Sequence record: MK327932.1
Origin: Escherichia phage vB_EcoM_G2248
Strand: one strand, 5' to 3'
DNA: 64,000 nt
Positions 8,358-27,090 of the stretch are shown piece after piece (within the stretch, counting starts at the first letter, position 1; each line of letters begins with the position of its first letter). Position numbers and translations under genes: made by a program. The notes under the pieces were generated by a model. The model searched no databases. It worked only from the letters and a program-made list of their open reading frames with translations, and was not told the origin of the DNA.

Positions 8358-10087
8358 ATGACGCATTAACATCATTTCGCGGGATGCGCAAGGAAGCGGA
8401 AGAAAACCCGATTGATAAACTTAACAAATTAGATAAACTTGATTCTATTGATAATTTGCAAGCCGCTACCGAATTGGTGGCAGAGACAGTAGAACAAAAA
8501 TCTAATGAAGTTGTTGGTGCGGTCGAGGATAACACCGCAGCCAATGAATTGACGGCAGAAAATACACAATCTACCGCTGGCAATACACAAAAAACTTATG
8601 AAGAATTGCAAAAACTCAATAATTTCTCTTCTCAGATGAATGAGAAATTACGTGGTTTTGGTGTTATGATGGAACGTAGATTTGGTGTTGTCAGTAAAAT
8701 GGCTAGCGGTATTGGTGCGATTGAAGAAGCATTGAAAAAACCGGAACAACCGCAAACAATGCCATCACCTCAGCCAGTTTTGCCTACTGTACCGGAACAG
8801 CCTAACAATGACAACTATCAAGGTCTTCCAAAGAAAAAACCAGATGTTGAGGAACGGAAGAAAAAGAACGCCGCAGATAAGCGTAATGCTGATTCTATGG
8901 AAAATCTTCTTAAAGTTGTTCGTGGAGGATTTAAAGAAACCATAGGTATCTCTAATAAGGTCTTAGGGATGTTATTTAAGATCACTTTGACCGCTATGGC
9001 AGAAGCCGCAAAATGGGGTGCTATTTTGATGGGTATTGTTTTTGTCATTGATACCCTGATGGTTCATTTCAGATATTGGAGTGATTTATTCGAAACAAAA
9101 TTCAAGGAATTTATGGATAAGGCCGGAGGATGGGCTGGTCCTATTAGCGATATTTTAACTACTGTTCGTCAGGTTCGAGATTATTGGTCTAAAGGAGAAT
9201 ATAAAGAATTAATTAAATCGCTGGTTATGGGTATTGGTGATGCGTTCTATAAAACCTTTATCCAACTTGATCGAATTATCACTACTGGTATTGCTAAAAT
9301 TCTTCGCATGATCCCTGGTATGGGTGATTATGCCGATAATTTAGAATACGGTGCTTTAAAATCTGCTGTTGCTAAAGGCTATAAGCCAAATGAAAGAGAA
9401 CTCGAATTAATGGATAAGGTCGAGTCTGAACACGAAGAAGACAAATATGGAGAGCGCACAGGATGGACAGGAAAAGCCCGTGATATTGGCGAGGCCATAG
9501 GCGAATCTATTAAAGATAAATTTAATGAAGGTCTTGTTAGTCTGGGCTGGAGAGATCAAAAGGATGTTGACGCAGAGAAACGACAAGAAGAATTAAAACG
9601 CGGGGAATACAAGTCTGTTTCTGCTGAACAACGATCTGCTAGTCGTAAACTTAAAATTAAAAGCGAGGGAGCGATCAATAATATTAATGAAGTTATGGAG
9701 AATTTGAGCGGTGACTATGACAAAGAAAGAATGGAAGAGTTGAAAAAGGATATTGATGTTTACCGTGAGCAAGTTCAAGATCCTACATTAGTTGAAAGTG
9801 ACCGTTCTCAGTTAGAGCGTCTTATTGAAAAATTTGATGAGATGTATGCTGATAAAACTAAGGGTGTGGTTCCAACTAATCCTGTTCCTGCAACTGAAAC
9901 GGAAACAGCAAAACAAGCGGAACGTACTGAACAAATGCAGAAACAAGCTGCAATCCAGCAACAAACGACAAATCAGACCTCAAACGTAAATAATACACAA
10001 ATTGTAACAAACAATAGAACTATTAAACAGGGTGCACCAACAACTAGAATTGATGCCCCAGGTACAATTAATATGGGGAACTTTTAA
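8354..10087 (+). CDS. 29: tail tube length determinator (tape measure) gp29
   Basis: 577 aa, low-complexity Q/N/T-rich C-terminus, synteny. Confidence 0.85.
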   Translation: MNDALTSFRGMRKEAEENPIDKLNKLDKLDSIDNLQAATELVAETVEQKSNEVVGAVEDNTAANELTAENTQSTAGNTQKTYEELQKLNNFSSQMNEKLRGFGVMMERRFGVVSKMASGIGAIEEALKKPEQPQTMPSPQPVLPTVPEQPNNDNYQGLPKKKPDVEERKKKNAADKRNADSMENLLKVVRGGFKETIGISNKVLGMLFKITLTAMAEAAKWGAILMGIVFVIDTLMVHFRYWSDLFETKFKEFMDKAGGWAGPISDILTTVRQVRDYWSKGEYKELIKSLVMGIGDAFYKTFIQLDRIITTGIAKILRMIPGMGDYADNLEYGALKSAVAKGYKPNERELELMDKVESEHEEDKYGERTGWTGKARDIGEAIGESIKDKFNEGLVSLGWRDQKDVDAEKRQEELKRGEYKSVSAEQRSASRKLKIKSEGAINNINEVMENLSGDYDKERMEELKKDIDVYREQVQDPTLVESDRSQLERLIEKFDEMYADKTKGVVPTNPVPATETETAKQAERTEQMQKQAAIQQQTTNQTSNVNNTQIVTNNRTIKQGAPTTRIDAPGTINMGNF

Positions 10088-12077: not shown

Positions 12078-12084
12078 TAAGCGA

Positions 12085-12116
12085 AAGGCGGGGATTATCC
12101 CCGCCTTTTTATTTTG
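12085..12116 (+). terminator. rho-independent terminator after gene 54
   Basis: AAGGCGGGGA-TTAT-CCCCGCCTT followed by TTTTATTTT; overlaps the stop of the convergent lipoprotein gene. Confidence 0.7.
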
Positions 12117-12594
12117 CTAAATCATTGCAGTATTTTAGTGCCTTAGTTTGAAATTCTGCGCTGTTAAGTTCTTCATAACGGTCATAATCACCGTTTAATG
12201 CTGCCTTTCTTGCTTCTTGCTCTATCTGCATGTCAGACATGATAATACAGCGATCCCGTGCTTTCAGCTTCTCAAGTTGTATAGACTCTTCTTTCTGTTT
12301 GCGCAATTCTTCTTGACGCTTCTTTTCTTCTCGTGCTTTCTCTTCCCGCGCTTCTTTGATTGCATCCTTGAACATCTGCGTTTGTGGTGCTAAACCAACT
12401 TTAACGCGATCCACGTCTCGACGTTCCATTTTAGAAATAAAGCATGATTCGATCTGATCATCACTTGCATATGCTGCTTTACATTCACGAAGCAAGAAAA
12501 CCGGATCTGATTTAGCATTCATCATAGCTTCCATGTTGGCACAACCAGTAAGCATGAATGCAGCCGCAAGACCAATCAGTTTAATCATTTTCAT
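12109..12594 (-). CDS. predicted lipoprotein with coiled-coil region
   Basis: N-terminal signal peptide with lipobox LTGC; E/K-rich helical middle. Confidence 0.6.
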   Translation of the reverse strand: MKMIKLIGLAAAFMLTGCANMEAMMNAKSDPVFLLRECKAAYASDDQIESCFISKMERRDVDRVKVGLAPQTQMFKDAIKEAREEKAREEKKRQEELRKQKEESIQLEKLKARDRCIIMSDMQIEQEARKAALNGDYDRYEELNSAEFQTKALKYCNDLAK

Positions 12595-13415
12595 TTAGTC
12601 ACCTCACCGAAAATTGTAAATTGTCTACGATTCTCATCGCCGAAAGATTCTACTACGTCGTTTACCTTGACGCAAGTCCCGCGCGGTAAAATTACTTCAC
12701 ATTCGCAAGGATTCCATGCAATTGACCCAACAACAAAACCTTTATGATCTTTTACGTCAATTACCCATGATACATTACAAGAATGTTGCATCTTTCCGGT
12801 CATTGATTCATATCGATTCTCACAATAAAGGCTAGTGCTGTTTGATAGCCATCCTCCAAAGATGATCGGTGTCATGCTGGTCGATACAAAGTTTTTAAAG
12901 GTAAACTCCTTATCTTCAATGATGCGCTCTATTGTCTGAATGTCAAGATGTTGACCGCGATAAAGAGTACCGTTTAACTTTTCGGTTTTATCCATGACAC
13001 AATCCATCAAATCAACAATCTCTGATATCTCATCGGTCATGTCTTCTTCCCCTAAGAGAGCACCATTTACCCATTCGTATTGTTCAGATACATAATCACA
13101 GATTGCATTATATTCTGCTGGGGTTATGTTGTTATGTTTGTAATGTTTGAATACATTATCTCCAAAGTCTTCGGAGTGTACTTCATACATCACATTAATG
13201 ATTTTCTTGACAAATCCATAATCTTGTGTCTCGCGCTCAAGGAAGCGGATAACCTTCACATAATCATCAAAGTTAATCTGATCGCTGATCATCTCAGTGA
13301 TCATGTAACCATTAATACCCTCAATGTCATATGTTTCGATGTAATTATCCATACGTTCCATCATTGATTCGCGTGATTCTTCTGAAAGACGAAAATCCTG
13401 TAATTTCTTGAACAT
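12591..13415 (-). CDS. Alt-like ADP-ribosyltransferase paralogue (short form)
   Basis: Shares the C-terminal catalytic signature of the adjacent Alt: YRG..., FKNFVSTS..., ECEVILPRG versus Alt YRG, FKNYVSTS, ECEILLPRG. Confidence 0.75.
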   Translation of the reverse strand: MFKKLQDFRLSEESRESMMERMDNYIETYDIEGINGYMITEMISDQINFDDYVKVIRFLERETQDYGFVKKIINVMYEVHSEDFGDNVFKHYKHNNITPAEYNAICDYVSEQYEWVNGALLGEEDMTDEISEIVDLMDCVMDKTEKLNGTLYRGQHLDIQTIERIIEDKEFTFKNFVSTSMTPIIFGGWLSNSTSLYCENRYESMTGKMQHSCNVSWVIDVKDHKGFVVGSIAWNPCECEVILPRGTCVKVNDVVESFGDENRRQFTIFGEVTK

Positions 13416-13436
13416 TTTAAACCTCCCATATAACAG

Positions 13437-13469
13437 AAAACGGGGCTAGTATAAAACTAGTCCCCGTTT
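13437..13469 (-). terminator. hairpin between alt and the Alt-like paralogue
   Basis: AAAACGGGGCTAGT-ATAAAA-CTAGTCCCCGTTT; U-rich run on the minus transcript. Confidence 0.5.
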
Positions 13470-13493
13470 GAGTCAACCATTATTTCTTAAAAA

Positions 13494-15545
13494 TTACATT
13501 TTAAATTTATCTGGCATTGCGTCTACAGATACCAGATCAGCGATAAGCTGACGTAGAGTTGCCTTATCTGCTTTCTTACGTTCGGTTTTAGCTTCGCTAA
13601 TGAAGCTGGAGAAAGACAGGTCAGAAGCAGGTTTAACAACACCTTCACGGATGAATGCATCACCGTCCGCGATCATCTCGCCAGATTCTTGTAATGCTGC
13701 CAGTTCATTTTTGTTCATAATATGTGCCTCAATGTAATAAGTTTCTTGTGAATCCGTCGATGCCGTAGCACGAGTTACCGTATCAAAGGATAACACAACA
13801 CCGCGAGGAAGTAAAATCTCGCATTCTTTGTAAGCAAATGCTTTGTTACCTACTGGCAAGACAGGGATGTTTTCCGCGCCAGCAATGGAGAAAGCAACAT
13901 TAGCGCCACCTTCACCGCGAGAGCCAGCCATAGAATCAACACCAGCAACGGCACTAGCCACGTTTGCATTCCAGCCGCCAAAAATGTTAGGTGCAAGGGA
14001 AGTGCTCACATAGTTTTTAAAGTAAAACGCTTTTTGCTTACGTGCAGTTTCCCACATTTGCGACCGGAAGTCCATACCACGATACAGAATAGTACCCGGA
14101 TCAAGTTTAACGCCATAGTTGGAGAAGGCATTATCCAGTGCATCGCACATCTTGACCAATTCTTCTGGATCTGAGATGCCTTCAAACTCTTCCAGCTTAC
14201 GATCAGTTAGGAAGTTGTTCATATTGATGTATGCTGCATCGGCATATTCGCTCAACACAAAACCTTCCGCGCCTGGCAGATCAAGATCAATATCTGCCAT
14301 CATTTCACCCATGTTACTAGCAATTGCTTCAAACATACCGGAAGCAACATTACGCAGGGCATCGGTTTTAATCTGGGTGATATGACTACGCAGCATTTCA
14401 GCTTTTACATCTGCTGGCATAGACTGGTCTACTCGATCCATTGCCAGGGCGGTGATCTTGTTTTCGAATACTTCCTCGCTCATGATTTCTTTTAAGCGTT
14501 TGATTGATGCTGCGATAACTTCCGCAGACAACGGATCATATTGATCCTGAACTTTTACCAGTTCGCTTACTGCGTATTTTGCATCGGCTTCGCTTTCAAA
14601 AATAGTACGCATGAAACCATAGCGAGTGATAATATCACTTGTCCAGTCATTCAGAGAACGGGCGGTTGAACGTTCTAAGGCTTGACGATCAATCAGAGTA
14701 TTAAACTGTTTCTTAGGTTCGGCTTCGGTGATATCTTCTTCCGGTTTAAGATTAATTTTTTCTGGATGATTCACATAGTCGCTGTTATAGGTCGCTTGAG
14801 TTTTCAGCATTTCTTCTTTAGTCAAACGAGATTTAGCCGCTACGCGTTGTTCCGCTTCCGCGTTTCGTTCTTCTTCTGACACCAGACTAGCCGCATACGC
14901 CTCATCTTTAGTCAGAGATTCACCAGTAGCCTTAGATACCCAGCGATCACCTAAATCACTTTCTACTTTAGTGAACAAGGAATCATCAAGTTTAATCCCT
15001 TTAATCTTATCAATCGCCATACCGCGACGCTTGACAACAACTAAAGCGATCTTTTTGCTGGTCATTACTTCCTGCTGGAATACTTCAAACTTCGGTGTAC
15101 GACGCACCAAACGCTCTATAACGCGCTTAACCAGTTCGGTCTTACCTTTCATGCGGGATACGTTAAAACGGAACATAACAGCGTCTAATTGCGCTTTACG
15201 GGCTGTTTCCATAACCACATCAAAAGCACTTGCCATAACTGCAATCGGGTTATCGCCTAGACCATTTTTAAGCTGTACAATACGACCGCTTTTGTTCATT
15301 TCGCACAGTACAACATGTGCGGTCTTGTCACCCATACGAATGATTTTAGGTGTTTTGTTGGTGAAGTTACAAAGACGGACAATCACATCTTTATCGCGTG
15401 TCTGTACTGCAAAAAGCTGTTTAGGATTCTGCTTAGGCTTTAAGCACTGTACCGGAGCAATACTGCCAAAGTTTTCTTCCTCTTCCGTCAACAGCCATTT
15501 CTCGAAAGATTCAATCATTAGATCGTCGATTTCTAAGTTAAACAT
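13494..15545 (-). CDS. alt: Alt ADP-ribosyltransferase (packaged, modifies host RNA polymerase in T4)
   Basis: 683 aa (T4 Alt ~682); R-S-ExE catalytic motifs; position after gene 54 as in T4. Confidence 0.85.
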   Translation of the reverse strand: MFNLEIDDLMIESFEKWLLTEEEENFGSIAPVQCLKPKQNPKQLFAVQTRDKDVIVRLCNFTNKTPKIIRMGDKTAHVVLCEMNKSGRIVQLKNGLGDNPIAVMASAFDVVMETARKAQLDAVMFRFNVSRMKGKTELVKRVIERLVRRTPKFEVFQQEVMTSKKIALVVVKRRGMAIDKIKGIKLDDSLFTKVESDLGDRWVSKATGESLTKDEAYAASLVSEEERNAEAEQRVAAKSRLTKEEMLKTQATYNSDYVNHPEKINLKPEEDITEAEPKKQFNTLIDRQALERSTARSLNDWTSDIITRYGFMRTIFESEADAKYAVSELVKVQDQYDPLSAEVIAASIKRLKEIMSEEVFENKITALAMDRVDQSMPADVKAEMLRSHITQIKTDALRNVASGMFEAIASNMGEMMADIDLDLPGAEGFVLSEYADAAYINMNNFLTDRKLEEFEGISDPEELVKMCDALDNAFSNYGVKLDPGTILYRGMDFRSQMWETARKQKAFYFKNYVSTSLAPNIFGGWNANVASAVAGVDSMAGSRGEGGANVAFSIAGAENIPVLPVGNKAFAYKECEILLPRGVVLSFDTVTRATASTDSQETYYIEAHIMNKNELAALQESGEMIADGDAFIREGVVKPASDLSFSSFISEAKTERKKADKATLRQLIADLVSVDAMPDKFKM

Positions 15546-15586
15546 TTTATATCCTCTAGTTGATAACCTATAAACCTATATTTATG

Positions 15587-15614
15587 AAAACGGGGCTTAA
15601 CGCCCCCTTTTATT
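15587..15614 (-). terminator. rho-independent terminator closing the early gene array upstream of alt
   Basis: Minus strand reads GGGGGCG-UUAA-GCCCCG followed by UUUUCAU. Confidence 0.55.
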
Positions 15615-15825
15615 ATAATGCACCAGCAAGCAATTGCTCTAAGGTGTATCCTGAATAGTCTTTTTCAATCAGGGTATATTTTCCTACTCGTTTAATCCAG
15701 CCACGCATTTCAACGTATTCTGCGTAGTTGATGGTACGAGTTGTTCCATCTTCTAGCAAAGCAGTACCGATTTCGTTAATGCGGTCATAAGTTACGTCGG
15801 TAATGATGATTTCGATGTTAGCCAT
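15613..15825 (-). CDS. hypothetical early protein
   Basis: 70-aa ORF behind a promoter cassette (-35 TTGACA at 15885-15890 on minus strand). Confidence 0.5.
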   Translation of the reverse strand: MANIEIIITDVTYDRINEIGTALLEDGTTRTINYAEYVEMRGWIKRVGKYTLIEKDYSGYTLEQLLAGAL

Positions 15826-15896
15826 TTGATACTCCTTAGTAGTTCGTTTCGGTATGGGTGTATTATGATATACACCCTCTGTTATGTCAACAACTT

Positions 15897-16144: not shown

Positions 16145-16663
16145 TTAGTTATTTTTTAATTGTTCATCTTGCAATAATGCAATCACATGCTGGCGATGTT
16201 CTTCCGATTGAGGCACACCGAAAAAGTTTGTTTTGTAGAAATACTCTAATCGGTCTTCTCGTGTGCTCTCTTCCATCATGATCGCGGGTAGTCCGAGATT
16301 TCGGAAACGTCGCTTTTCTGCTGGCGTAAAATCACTGTAATACAACATAGAATCATCATTACCAGCAATGCTAAACTCATCATTCATGAAGGAGAATATT
16401 GCGTTTAAACGCTGTTTACCGTCCACGATTTCGATCTCATAGCGAGAGCCATCATCAATCTTAGCCATTGCGATAGCACCAACCGGAAAATCATTAATCA
16501 GGTTTTCGATAAACATACGTTTGTTTTCGGTGTCCCATACCAAAGGACGCTGATAATCTGGGTTCATGTTGATATATCCATCTTCTAACCACGCCTCATA
16601 AACAGAGATGACAAAGTTTTTAGTATTGGTATAGTAACGGCGTTTAGGCGTTAAACGGTTCAT
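16145..16663 (-). CDS. DUF262 / ParB-like domain protein (GmrSD N-terminal-domain-like)
   Basis: Motifs DYQRPLVWD and IVDGKQRL typical of DUF262; start moved to ATG at 16663 (MNRLTPK, RBS AGGAGA), 172 aa. Confidence 0.6.
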   Translation of the reverse strand: MNRLTPKRRYYTNTKNFVISVYEAWLEDGYINMNPDYQRPLVWDTENKRMFIENLINDFPVGAIAMAKIDDGSRYEIEIVDGKQRLNAIFSFMNDEFSIAGNDDSMLYYSDFTPAEKRRFRNLGLPAIMMEESTREDRLEYFYKTNFFGVPQSEEHRQHVIALLQDEQLKNN

Positions 16664-16664
16664 G

Positions 16665-16997
16665 TTATAGTCTCCTGAATGGATCATCACGTAAATCAAT
16701 ATCTTTTAAGAACTCATCCCATGAATGGCGGATATTGTTCTTAATTCTCCAGATAAGCGCAGGGATTGAACGCTCTCCCATCTGGAAGTATGGATCATAT
16801 GATCCGTATGCCCAATATGCTACTACAATTCCACAATCAGCGCAATAGTATTCTATTTCACTTGCTGGCGACCAAAGTCCATCAATATGATCGGTGATCT
16901 TGCTTTCGATGTTATGGCTATGACAATCAGGGCAACGGATGCAATGACCTTGTTTATCGTAATTTGACGTTAGCGAATACTTAAACAATCTCATCAT
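16665..16997 (-). CDS. zinc-ribbon protein
   Basis: CxxC...CxxC (CIRCPDCHSH ... YCADCG); translationally coupled to both neighbours. Confidence 0.55.
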   Translation of the reverse strand: MMRLFKYSLTSNYDKQGHCIRCPDCHSHNIESKITDHIDGLWSPASEIEYYCADCGIVVAYWAYGSYDPYFQMGERSIPALIWRIKNNIRHSWDEFLKDIDLRDDPFRRL

Positions 16998-26769: not shown

Positions 26770-27090
26770 TTATTTATAAATTTCGACGATCTGCGCTGGA
26801 GTCAGCCCGTCTACATTAATCAGACTATCAAGCCCAAAACTACGGAAACCTTCAACTGCAATTTCATATACTGGCAAAGATGTTTCTGATTCTTTACGCG
26901 GTTTTTCAACATTCGGAACTAACCACTTTTCGTATGTTTCGAAAGGCATCAGTGCCGGATCTCGCGTAGCGATCATATCTCGGACAGTACCATCTTTCTT
27001 AGTAAACTGCAAAGAGTGAGTACCGACCGAAAACATTTTCTTTAGTGCTTCACGAAGTGCGATATTATCAACTTGTTCAGTCATTATCAA
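26770..27090 (-). CDS. hypothetical protein
   Basis: 106-aa ORF between cd and 31. Confidence 0.45.
   Translation of the reverse strand: MIMTEQVDNIALREALKKMFSVGTHSLQFTKKDGTVRDMIATRDPALMPFETYEKWLVPNVEKPRKESETSLPVYEIAVEGFRSFGLDSLINVDGLTPAQIVEIYK

Follow-up and report, generated by a model that had tools for sequence, protein, structure and literature searches.

The Alt protein of bacteriophage T4 (gpAlt) is a head-packaged, arginine-specific mono-ADP-ribosyltransferase (ART), whose substrate is Arg265 of the RNA polymerase α subunit. It is present in the core at ~40 copies, is trimmed by gp21 and enters the cell by injection (PMC9958956), and the ARTs ModA and ModB are early products (PMC2988021). 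In T2 (alt and KMC23_gp211), JS98 (alta/altb), 44RR (ORF187c) and T4 (alt.-1/alt.-2), a duplicate of alt occupies one and the same slot, between alt and gene 54; some of these duplicates are full length (685-708 aa), the others non-catalytic remnants of the N-terminal part. For phage RB49, a pair of Alt and a short paralogue has been annotated since 2003. RB49p183 (ORF183c, NP_891754.1) is annotated as 'ADP-ribosyltransferase; similar to C-terminal part of T4 Alt'; under the name RB49ORF183c, it is listed by Nolan et al. 2006 (PMC1524935) as a paralogue duplicated from alt. RB49 and phi1 furthermore carry PeSL cassettes (Arbiol et al. 2010, PMC2839356; Comeau et al. 2014, PMC4122927), in which a stop codon in an AT-rich stretch is followed by σ70 -35 and -10 elements, a G-run/C-run stem-loop over the -10, a Shine-Dalgarno sequence (SD) and a start codon (PMC2839356).

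We analyzed a window of 64,000 nucleotides from Escherichia phage vB_EcoM_G2248 (MK327932.1), a Krischvirus (RB49-like) genome. The sequence-only reading had placed two Alt-family ART genes in tandem here, and both ORFs were found at exactly those coordinates and lengths (Table 1). The 683-aa product matched PHROG 802 'Alt-like RNA polymerase ADP-ribosyltransferase' over residues 16-683 (E=5.9e-180), has the N-terminal Alt domain of ~330 aa (PF26846, Tevenvirinae_ADPRT) and contains a PF03496 (ADPrib_exo_Tox) match at residues 425-610 (37.7 bits, gathering score 23.4 bits). Its RB49 counterpart is RB49p184 alt. The 274-aa ORF is the same gene as RB49p183 and the orthologues that all Krischvirus genomes carry, with no difference at the sequence level, and the implied novelty of the pair was thus preceded by the RB49 annotation and by Nolan et al. 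2006 (PMC1524935). In the literature searched, we did not find an account of the expression logic, selection or mosaic boundary of the short gene. Across Krischvirus records the gene is labelled inconsistently, as 'hypothetical', as 'ADP-ribosyltransferase' or even as 'Alt'.

Table 1. Features of the alt region in the window, with positions counted from its first nucleotide.
Feature	Position	Strand	Remarks
Bidirectional terminator	12083-12109		Separates lipoprotein ORF from converging gene 54; closes the predicted unit
Lipoprotein ORF	12109-12594	-	161 aa; ATGA overlap with short ART gene; PHROG 16112, unknown function
Short Alt paralogue (RB49p183/ORF183c)	12591-13415	-	274 aa; ART domain ~82-266
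PeSL-type cassette (predicted σ70 promoter + stem-loop)	13416-13493	-	78-nt spacer between alt and short gene
Cassette SD	13427-13422	-	GGGAGG, before short gene
Cassette T-run	13440-13437	-	After hairpin
Cassette -10	13453-13448	-	TATACT, within loop/stem; 17-nt spacing from TTGACT
Cassette hairpin	5' arm 13468-13457, loop 13456-13450, 3' arm 13449-13439	-	11 pairs, loop TTTTATA
Cassette -35	13476-13471	-	TTGACT
alt, full-length Alt-like ART	13494-15545	-	683 aa; presumed virion-packaged copy
Terminator and late-promoter-like motif 5' of alt	15579-15606	-	GC hairpin 15606-15592, then CATAAATA 15586-15579

The two proteins are paralogues. BLASTP aligned the short with the long one over 109 aa (37% identity, E=1e-16), and the aligned stretch includes, in both, the Alt catalytic signatures LYRG, FKN[FY]VSTS and ECE[VI][IL]LPRG. 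The PF03496 score of the short protein (59.3 bits) also exceeds the cutoff, and PHROG 15144 matched it over its full length (E=2.6e-198); a search of NCBIfam yielded no matches. The predicted catalytic set comprises R153, S178-T179-S180 and E238-C-E240. The concern that these residues might not align with those of known enzymes was not borne out in an alignment of nine proteins (both proteins of the window, T4 Alt, the T2 and JS98 Alt pairs, ModA and ModB): R153 and S178-T-S180 match the corresponding residues of T4 Alt in position, and E238 and E240 are invariant, ModA and ModB included. Among six members of the short family, with identities down to 42%, the R/STS/ExE set is invariant, as are 70 positions in total and a family-specific loop at residues 186-202 (FGGW..NSTS..CE..Y).

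A sequence search of the PDB gave only marginal matches (Tre1, SpvB and Vis; E 0.07-0.55), and a fold search was therefore needed. An AlphaFold2 model of the 274-aa protein (pLDDT 81.9, pTM 0.81) has a predicted ART fold, with a helical N-subdomain and a split beta-sandwich core. Using this model, Foldseek returned Vis, C3bot, Certhrax, CDTa and iota Ia as top matches (E 4e-11 to 1e-8, probability 1.0). These toxins belong to the R-S-E clade; however, they share only 13-20% sequence identity with the phage protein, C3 carries Q-x-E instead of the arginine-type E-x-E, and the toxins are secreted, whereas the short ART is predicted to be intracellular. Since the catalytic residues align, the PF03496 score exceeds the cutoff and the predicted fold is that of an ART, we infer that the short ORF encodes a functional mono-ADP-ribosyltransferase of the arginine type (R-S-ExE).

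According to the sequence-only reading, the C-terminal half of the short protein reproduces Alt and is joined to a different N-terminal region, possibly for targeting. The signatures are indeed present, but the homology is wider, and detectable similarity to Alt spans about three quarters of the protein or more. Profile-profile comparison (hhalign) aligned residues 65-273 with Alt 384-616 (probability 99.9), and an HMM of 61 Alt sequences aligned residues 5-264 with profile positions 324-585. What had been taken for a distinct N-terminal region is thus mostly the middle segment of Alt, and the stretch without confident similarity to Alt is limited to the first ~20-64 residues at most. From these alignments, the short protein is a doubly truncated Alt, colinear with Alt ~330-600, rather than an ART core fused to a foreign domain. 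It lacks the ~330 N-terminal residues of Alt (the PF26846 region) and the C-terminal ~80 aa, whose tail, ending in MPxKF, is present in all seven full-length Alts. In relatives as well, the long copy consists of PF26846 and PF03496 and the neighbouring short copy of PF03496 only. The gene would have arisen by tandem duplication of alt, followed by loss of both ends. Compared with T4 Alt, the short protein thus shares the PF03496/PHROG 802 ART family, the catalytic set and a neighbourhood near genes 54 and 48, but lacks both terminal regions and adds the invariant loop. Unlike the second copies of T2, JS98, 44RR and T4, it retains the catalytic portion only, has a predicted promoter of its own and precedes a lipoprotein gene instead of alt.-3.

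The short gene is under purifying selection, with a dN/dS of 0.098 for the gene as a whole and 0.042 for its catalytic core (dS >1). It is present with an intact reading frame in all sequenced Krischvirus genomes (58/58, at least 97% identity), and the amino acid sequence is 100% identical to that of RB49, Phi1, GEC-3S and others. The frame is likewise intact in five metagenomic lineages, which also retain the order Alt, short ART, lipoprotein, gene 54. We considered whether the 60-90% identity bands represent divergent alleles of sequenced phages and rejected this, as the full-length matches there (58/58) are all at least 97% identical; divergent alleles were found in metagenomes only.

The hairpin that had been noticed between the two genes was confirmed: it forms 11 pairs with a fold z-score of -2.6, and none of 200 shuffled sequences folded equally well. 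Together with its surroundings it has the anatomy of a PeSL cassette, namely an AT-rich leader, a σ70 promoter with a 17-bp spacer, a G/C stem-loop over the promoter, an SD and a start codon. Across six lineages the core is essentially invariant; the -35, -10, loop and AT-rich leader are unchanged, and the stem covaries (98.5% of cells paired, two pairs with compensatory changes, slid controls at most 58%). At this position in RB49 an early promoter, Pe:112388, is predicted in the supplement of Nolan et al. 2006, albeit with a low HMM score (9.3 versus 30-39 for neighbouring promoters). The late-promoter motif ATAAATA does not occur in the 78-nt spacer, and the promoter of the short gene is predicted to be σ70-type, not late-type as for T4 Alt. 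We predict from the sequence that the cassette acts both as promoter and as terminator. This sequence occurs once in the window (0-3 mismatches allowed) and does not belong to a set of near-identical repeats, which rules out a generic PeSL repeat and indicates that its conservation is orthologous rather than the result of repeat homogenization. The spacer coincides with a mosaic boundary, fitting the PeSL shuffling model. Downstream, the lipoprotein ORF is predicted to be translationally coupled to the short ART gene within one early transcription unit. Its lipobox (L-x-G-C) and four further cysteines do not vary among five lineages. At the end of the unit, Nolan et al. 2006 list a terminator, '54-><-RB49ORF182c'.

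Upstream of alt, the organization is different: a GC hairpin is followed by the late-promoter-like motif CATAAATA, 34 nt before the start codon. One relative (L006) has an equal layout, a hairpin followed by AATAAATA. ATAAATA is rarer than expected in the window (8 copies versus 23±5), and five of the eight copies stand before late-type genes. The supplement of Nolan et al. 2006 (PMC1524935) lists a terminator, 'alt<--RB49ORF185c', upstream of RB49 alt, and its late-promoter list has no entry there.

The best overall explanation, to which we assign a probability of about 0.6, is that Alt is a late, packaged product, and the short ART an early one that stays out of the virion and works in the cytoplasm. 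The terminator would shield alt from upstream early transcription and leave it to be read from the late-type promoter; Alt would therefore appear late and, as in T4, be packaged into the head and injected. The hairpin 3' of alt would end the alt transcript, and the σ70 promoter inside the cassette would open a new, early transcript for the short ART gene and the lipoprotein gene coupled to it. With an early transcript of its own, the short enzyme would be made in the newly infected cell and would act on one or more host proteins without being packaged. The short ART would thus be similar to ModA and ModB in timing, and derived from Alt in ancestry. In our search of the literature no transcriptome, virion proteome or enzymology was found for any RB49-type phage, and timing and packaging are hence inferred from sequence signals only.

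The hairpin may, however, merely attenuate transcription and permit late read-through from alt. In that case the short ART could also be a head-internal virion protein, packaged and injected with Alt, perhaps by means of an N-terminal leader cut by the prohead protease. The gene directly follows that of its packaged paralogue in equal orientation, and ARTs of phages in T4-like contexts are often packaged (PMC9503650). The N-terminus MFKKLQDFRLSE is faintly similar to the capsid-targeting sequence of T4 IPII/IPIII (MKTYQEFIAE, taken from the T4 genome) and ends in an L-x-E protease-like motif. Yet this leader is not conserved in the short-family members P0003-P0006 and occurs in no other ORF of the RB49 proteome, and we take the resemblance to be chance; a similar motif is also found at the N-terminus of ModA, an early product and not a head protein (PMC2988021). 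The conserved σ70 promoter, the lack of a late-promoter motif and the absence of the entire Alt N-terminal domain and of the conserved MPxKF tail likewise argue against packaging, although the signal that sends T4 Alt to the head is not known (PMC9958956), and loss of the N-terminus is therefore no proof that packaging was lost. We regard a packaged short ART as rather unlikely.

Much less room is left for two other explanations. Because T4 has non-functional remnants of alt (alt.-1/alt.-2) in the equal slot, and because the short ORF lacks both ends of Alt, it might be a decaying duplicate. A dN/dS of ~0.1 with dS >1, the invariance of all catalytic residues among the 70 conserved positions, the intact frame throughout the sequenced genomes and the metagenomic lineages, and the confidently predicted fold effectively refute this view. 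Alternatively, the enzyme could be the ModA/ModB-family member of this lineage, misplaced beside alt, considering that 274 aa is closer to Mod (200-207 aa) than to Alt and that an early promoter is predicted, as for mod genes. It does resemble ModA and ModB in its small size, predicted early synthesis in the infected cell and R-S-ExE chemistry, but it belongs to a separate sequence family: hhalign against ModA, ModB and RB49p014 gave a probability of ~1%, BLASTP against Mod an E-value of 1.2, and PF03496 matches the short protein and not the Mod proteins. RB49 moreover encodes one intact Mod homologue (RB49p014) elsewhere, between srd and gene 56, the position syntenic with T4. At the level of sequence family a Mod identity is refuted. 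Given the intact homologue, a role as Mod substitute is not required either, and we dropped the argument that the short ART replaces Mod.

Returning to an early, cytoplasmic short ART, it is plausible that it modifies a different host target than Alt, as had been proposed from the sequence. More tentatively, and with the odds against the proposal as a whole, the early promoter, short ART and lipoprotein gene may form an exchangeable cassette, reaching from the PeSL to the gene-54 terminator, that RB49-like phages swap independently of alt. In that case the short ART would have a substrate other than Arg265 of RNA polymerase α, such as a translation factor or a component of a defence system, or would catalyze ModB-like RNAylation, with loop 186-202 as recognition element.

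These findings do not overturn current understanding, and their added value is modest. They mainly amount to housekeeping, in that the Krischvirus short gene can be described as an intact, selected, truncated Alt paralogue. The conserved promoter-hairpin cassette on a recombination boundary neatly illustrates the PeSL model as published. Akin to T4, RB49-type phages appear to have three ARTs, but their make-up differs: Alt, which is packaged, an early enzyme derived from Alt, and just one Mod. RB49-type phages would thus be a natural system for studying how ARTs diverge after duplication in substrate choice and in delivery route, injected versus made in the cell.

The sequence-only reading had placed two tandem Alt-family ADP-ribosyltransferase (ART) genes here, and both ORFs were confirmed at the lengths it gave, at the genomic position that alt occupies in T4. 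The longer product, Alt, matched PHROG 802 'Alt-like RNA polymerase ADP-ribosyltransferase' along its full length (E=5.9e-180), the shorter one (short ART) matched PHROG 15144 'ADP-ribosyltransferase' over 274/274 positions (E=2.6e-198), and each exceeded the Pfam PF03496 threshold. Pairwise, they were 37% identical over 109 aa (E=1e-16), an alignment that takes in the shared catalytic signatures LYRG, FKN[FY]VSTS and ECE[VI][IL]LPRG, as had been noted. The alignment of catalytic residues was extended to ModA, ModB, T4 Alt and the two copies each of T2 and JS98. Both glutamates of E-x-E were invariant throughout, Mods included, and the arginine and S-T-S of the short ART fell in Alt columns. 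Since Arg, S-T-S and E-x-E align with Alt, the misaligned or unconserved residues looked for against T4 Alt, ModA and ModB were not found and the gene pair is confirmed.

Positions of features in and around the alt/short ART locus
Feature	Position	Strand	Details
gp48	neighbour	+	PF11091, E=4e-125
gp54	neighbour	+	
Alt ORF	13494-15545	-	683 aa
Short ART ORF	12591-13415	-	274 aa
Lipoprotein ORF	12109-12594	-	161 aa
TAA in AT-rich stretch	start of 78-nt spacer, gene direction		
-35 TTGACT	13476-13471	-	
17-nt spacer	between TTGACT and TATACT	-	
-10 TATACT	13453-13448	-	
Stem AACGGGGACTAG / CTAGCCCCGTT	13468-13439	-	11 pairs
TTTT, GGGAGG, then ATG	3' part of spacer, after stem	-	
GC hairpin upstream of alt	15606-15592	-	also in terminator list of Nolan et al.
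CATAAATA	15586-15579	-	after GC hairpin, upstream of alt
ATAAATA, window-wide	2343, 2361, 3888, 5955, 15579, 26771, 43936, 49048		
RB49p014	8917-9420 of RB49 genome, outside window		167 aa

The pair is already annotated and published. A 3.9-kb region around it is 98.6-98.9% identical in nucleotides to 58 Krischvirus phage records, including RB49, Phi1, JSE, GEC-3S and TB34, and the short protein is encoded in 58/58 of them at an identity of at least 97%. In RefSeq RB49 it is RB49p183, product 'ADP-ribosyltransferase', annotated as 'similar to C-terminal part of T4 Alt protein', and RB49ORF183c was listed as a paralogous duplication of alt (Nolan et al. 2006, PMC1524935). Related phages often have a second alt copy here too: two full-length copies are present in T2 and in JS98, whereas T4 keeps the N-terminal remnants alt.-1 and alt.-2.

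The sequence-only reading had further given the short protein a distinct N-terminal targeting region. Profile-profile comparison of six short-family members (down to 42% identity) with seven full-length Alts aligned short 65-273 to Alt 384-616 (probability 99.9). An HMM from 61 full-length Alt-like proteins aligned short 5-264 to its positions 324-585, corresponding to window Alt ~330-601, with low confidence over the first ~60 residues; PHROG 802 gave an agreeing registration (8-268 vs 330-602). When 1.84 billion cluster representatives were searched exhaustively, only ~4 short-family clusters came up, the remaining matches being Alt-like proteins of 600-710 aa, several of which align from short-ART residue ~20-40 onward. 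Because these alignments are colinear, the short ART is, on sequence grounds, Alt shortened by ~330 N-terminal and ~80 C-terminal residues, and no ART core joined to a foreign targeting domain. Thus the tandem Alt-family ARTs stand, and the targeting region is unsupported. The AlphaFold2 model (pLDDT 81.9, pTM 0.81) had Vis, C3bot, Certhrax, CDTa and iota Ia as best PDB neighbours. Its only poorly modelled stretch was a loop at residues 187-207; all short-family members keep the loop sequence FGGW..NSTS..CE..Y unchanged, and it differs from that of Alt. This loop sequence (FGGWLSNSTSLYCENRY, residues 186-202, window ~12810-12860) is a candidate substrate-recognition element.

That the short ART is a pseudogene is very improbable, being contradicted by a dN/dS of 0.098 against an 83%-identical metagenomic allele (0.042 for residues 151-274; dS above 1), by 70 positions invariant across six family members, every catalytic residue included, and by the order long Alt, short ART, ~160-170-aa ORF and converging gene 54, kept in five metagenomic lineages. 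Such conservation argues that the gene is functional and no relic. Still less credible is a displaced Mod: the hhalign probability was ~1% and BLASTP gave E>1, so Mod-family membership was rejected. RB49-type phages have a single Mod homologue where T4 has the modA-modB pair; in RB49 it is RB49p014, which lies between srd and gene 56. It is 25-27% identical to T4 ModA and to T4 ModB and retains R44, S70 and E132-x-E134. With this intact homologue in addition to Alt and the short ART, the RB49 lineage apparently runs three ARTs, all seemingly active. T4 also has three (Alt, ModA and ModB), but in RB49 Alt is accompanied by a short enzyme derived from it and a single Mod.

Packaging of the short ART through a CTS-like leader is also unlikely, if less so; MFKKLQDFRLSE faintly resembles T4 MKTYQEFIAE, but the family does not conserve this leader, and no other protein of RB49 shares it. 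In T4, Alt is present in the core at ~40 copies, is trimmed by gp21 and is injected (PMC9958956; PMC2988021), and alt would here likewise be a late, packaged product. No transcriptome or virion proteome of any RB49-type phage was found in the literature. Upstream of alt, a divergent relative has the same GC hairpin followed by AATAAATA. The late-promoter core ATAAATA is far rarer in the window than expected (8 copies vs 23±5), and 5/8 precede inh, uvsW, uvsW.1, gene 51 or alt by 25-45 nt. The copies at 26771 (-; within 30.3, upstream of gene 30), 43936 (+; antisense inside the gp33 gene) and 49048 (+; within gene 34) are unexplained. Nolan et al. 2006 (PMC1524935) describe poor conservation of the late octamer's first T in RB49, but list no late promoter upstream of alt.

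The spacer between alt and the short ART has the anatomy of the PeSLs of RB49 and phi1, combined early promoters and terminators/attenuators (Arbiol et al. 2010, PMC2839356). Its hairpin loop, TTTTATA, holds most of the -10. No differences were seen in the AT-rich leader, -35, loop/-10, G4/C4 stem and T-run among six lineages, in which the identity of the flanking proteins is down to ~42-46%. Two variable stem pairs show compensatory changes, and 98.5% of cells are paired vs at most 58% in slid controls. The element occurs once in the window; an early promoter, Pe:112388, was independently predicted at the same RB49 spot, with a low score (Nolan et al. 2006, PMC1524935).

A lipoprotein ORF, its start overlapping the short-ART stop codon (ATGA), is kept downstream in five divergent lineages and evolves fast (dN/dS ~0.4). 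It has a lipobox (L-T-G-C), four further invariant cysteines and a charged, coiled-coil-like middle, belongs to PHROG 16112 (unknown function), shows a weak, signal-peptide-level match to the Cor superinfection-exclusion family and is unrelated to T4 alt.-3. Elsewhere, a second PeSL-like element (15862-15890, -; TTGACA-17-CATAAT with hairpin GGGTGTAT/ATACACCC across the -10) precedes a 70-aa ORF (15613-15825), and a perfect-consensus TTGACA-17-TATAAT lies at 16137-16109. The 184-aa ORF at 16145-16699 (-), RB49p187, 'hypothetical' in RB49, has a GmrSD_N/DUF262 domain (PF03235, E=5e-20), which forms the N-terminus of the type IV restriction enzymes inhibited by T4 IPI. Here it is a stand-alone phage gene, adjoining a zinc-ribbon ORF and a DNA methyltransferase gene.

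Between the window and the metagenomic source of the 83%-identical allele, Alt is nearly identical (dS 0.28, dN 0.01), whereas the short ART, at dS 1.15, and the lipoprotein ORF, at dS 1.9 and dN 0.78, are far more diverged, which places a recombination boundary at or near the spacer (13416-13493), as the PeSL shuffling model predicts. The short ART would be expressed as one early unit with its coupled lipoprotein gene, ending at a bidirectional terminator (12083-12109). We put at roughly one in four the probability that this unit is an exchangeable cassette with a new substrate.
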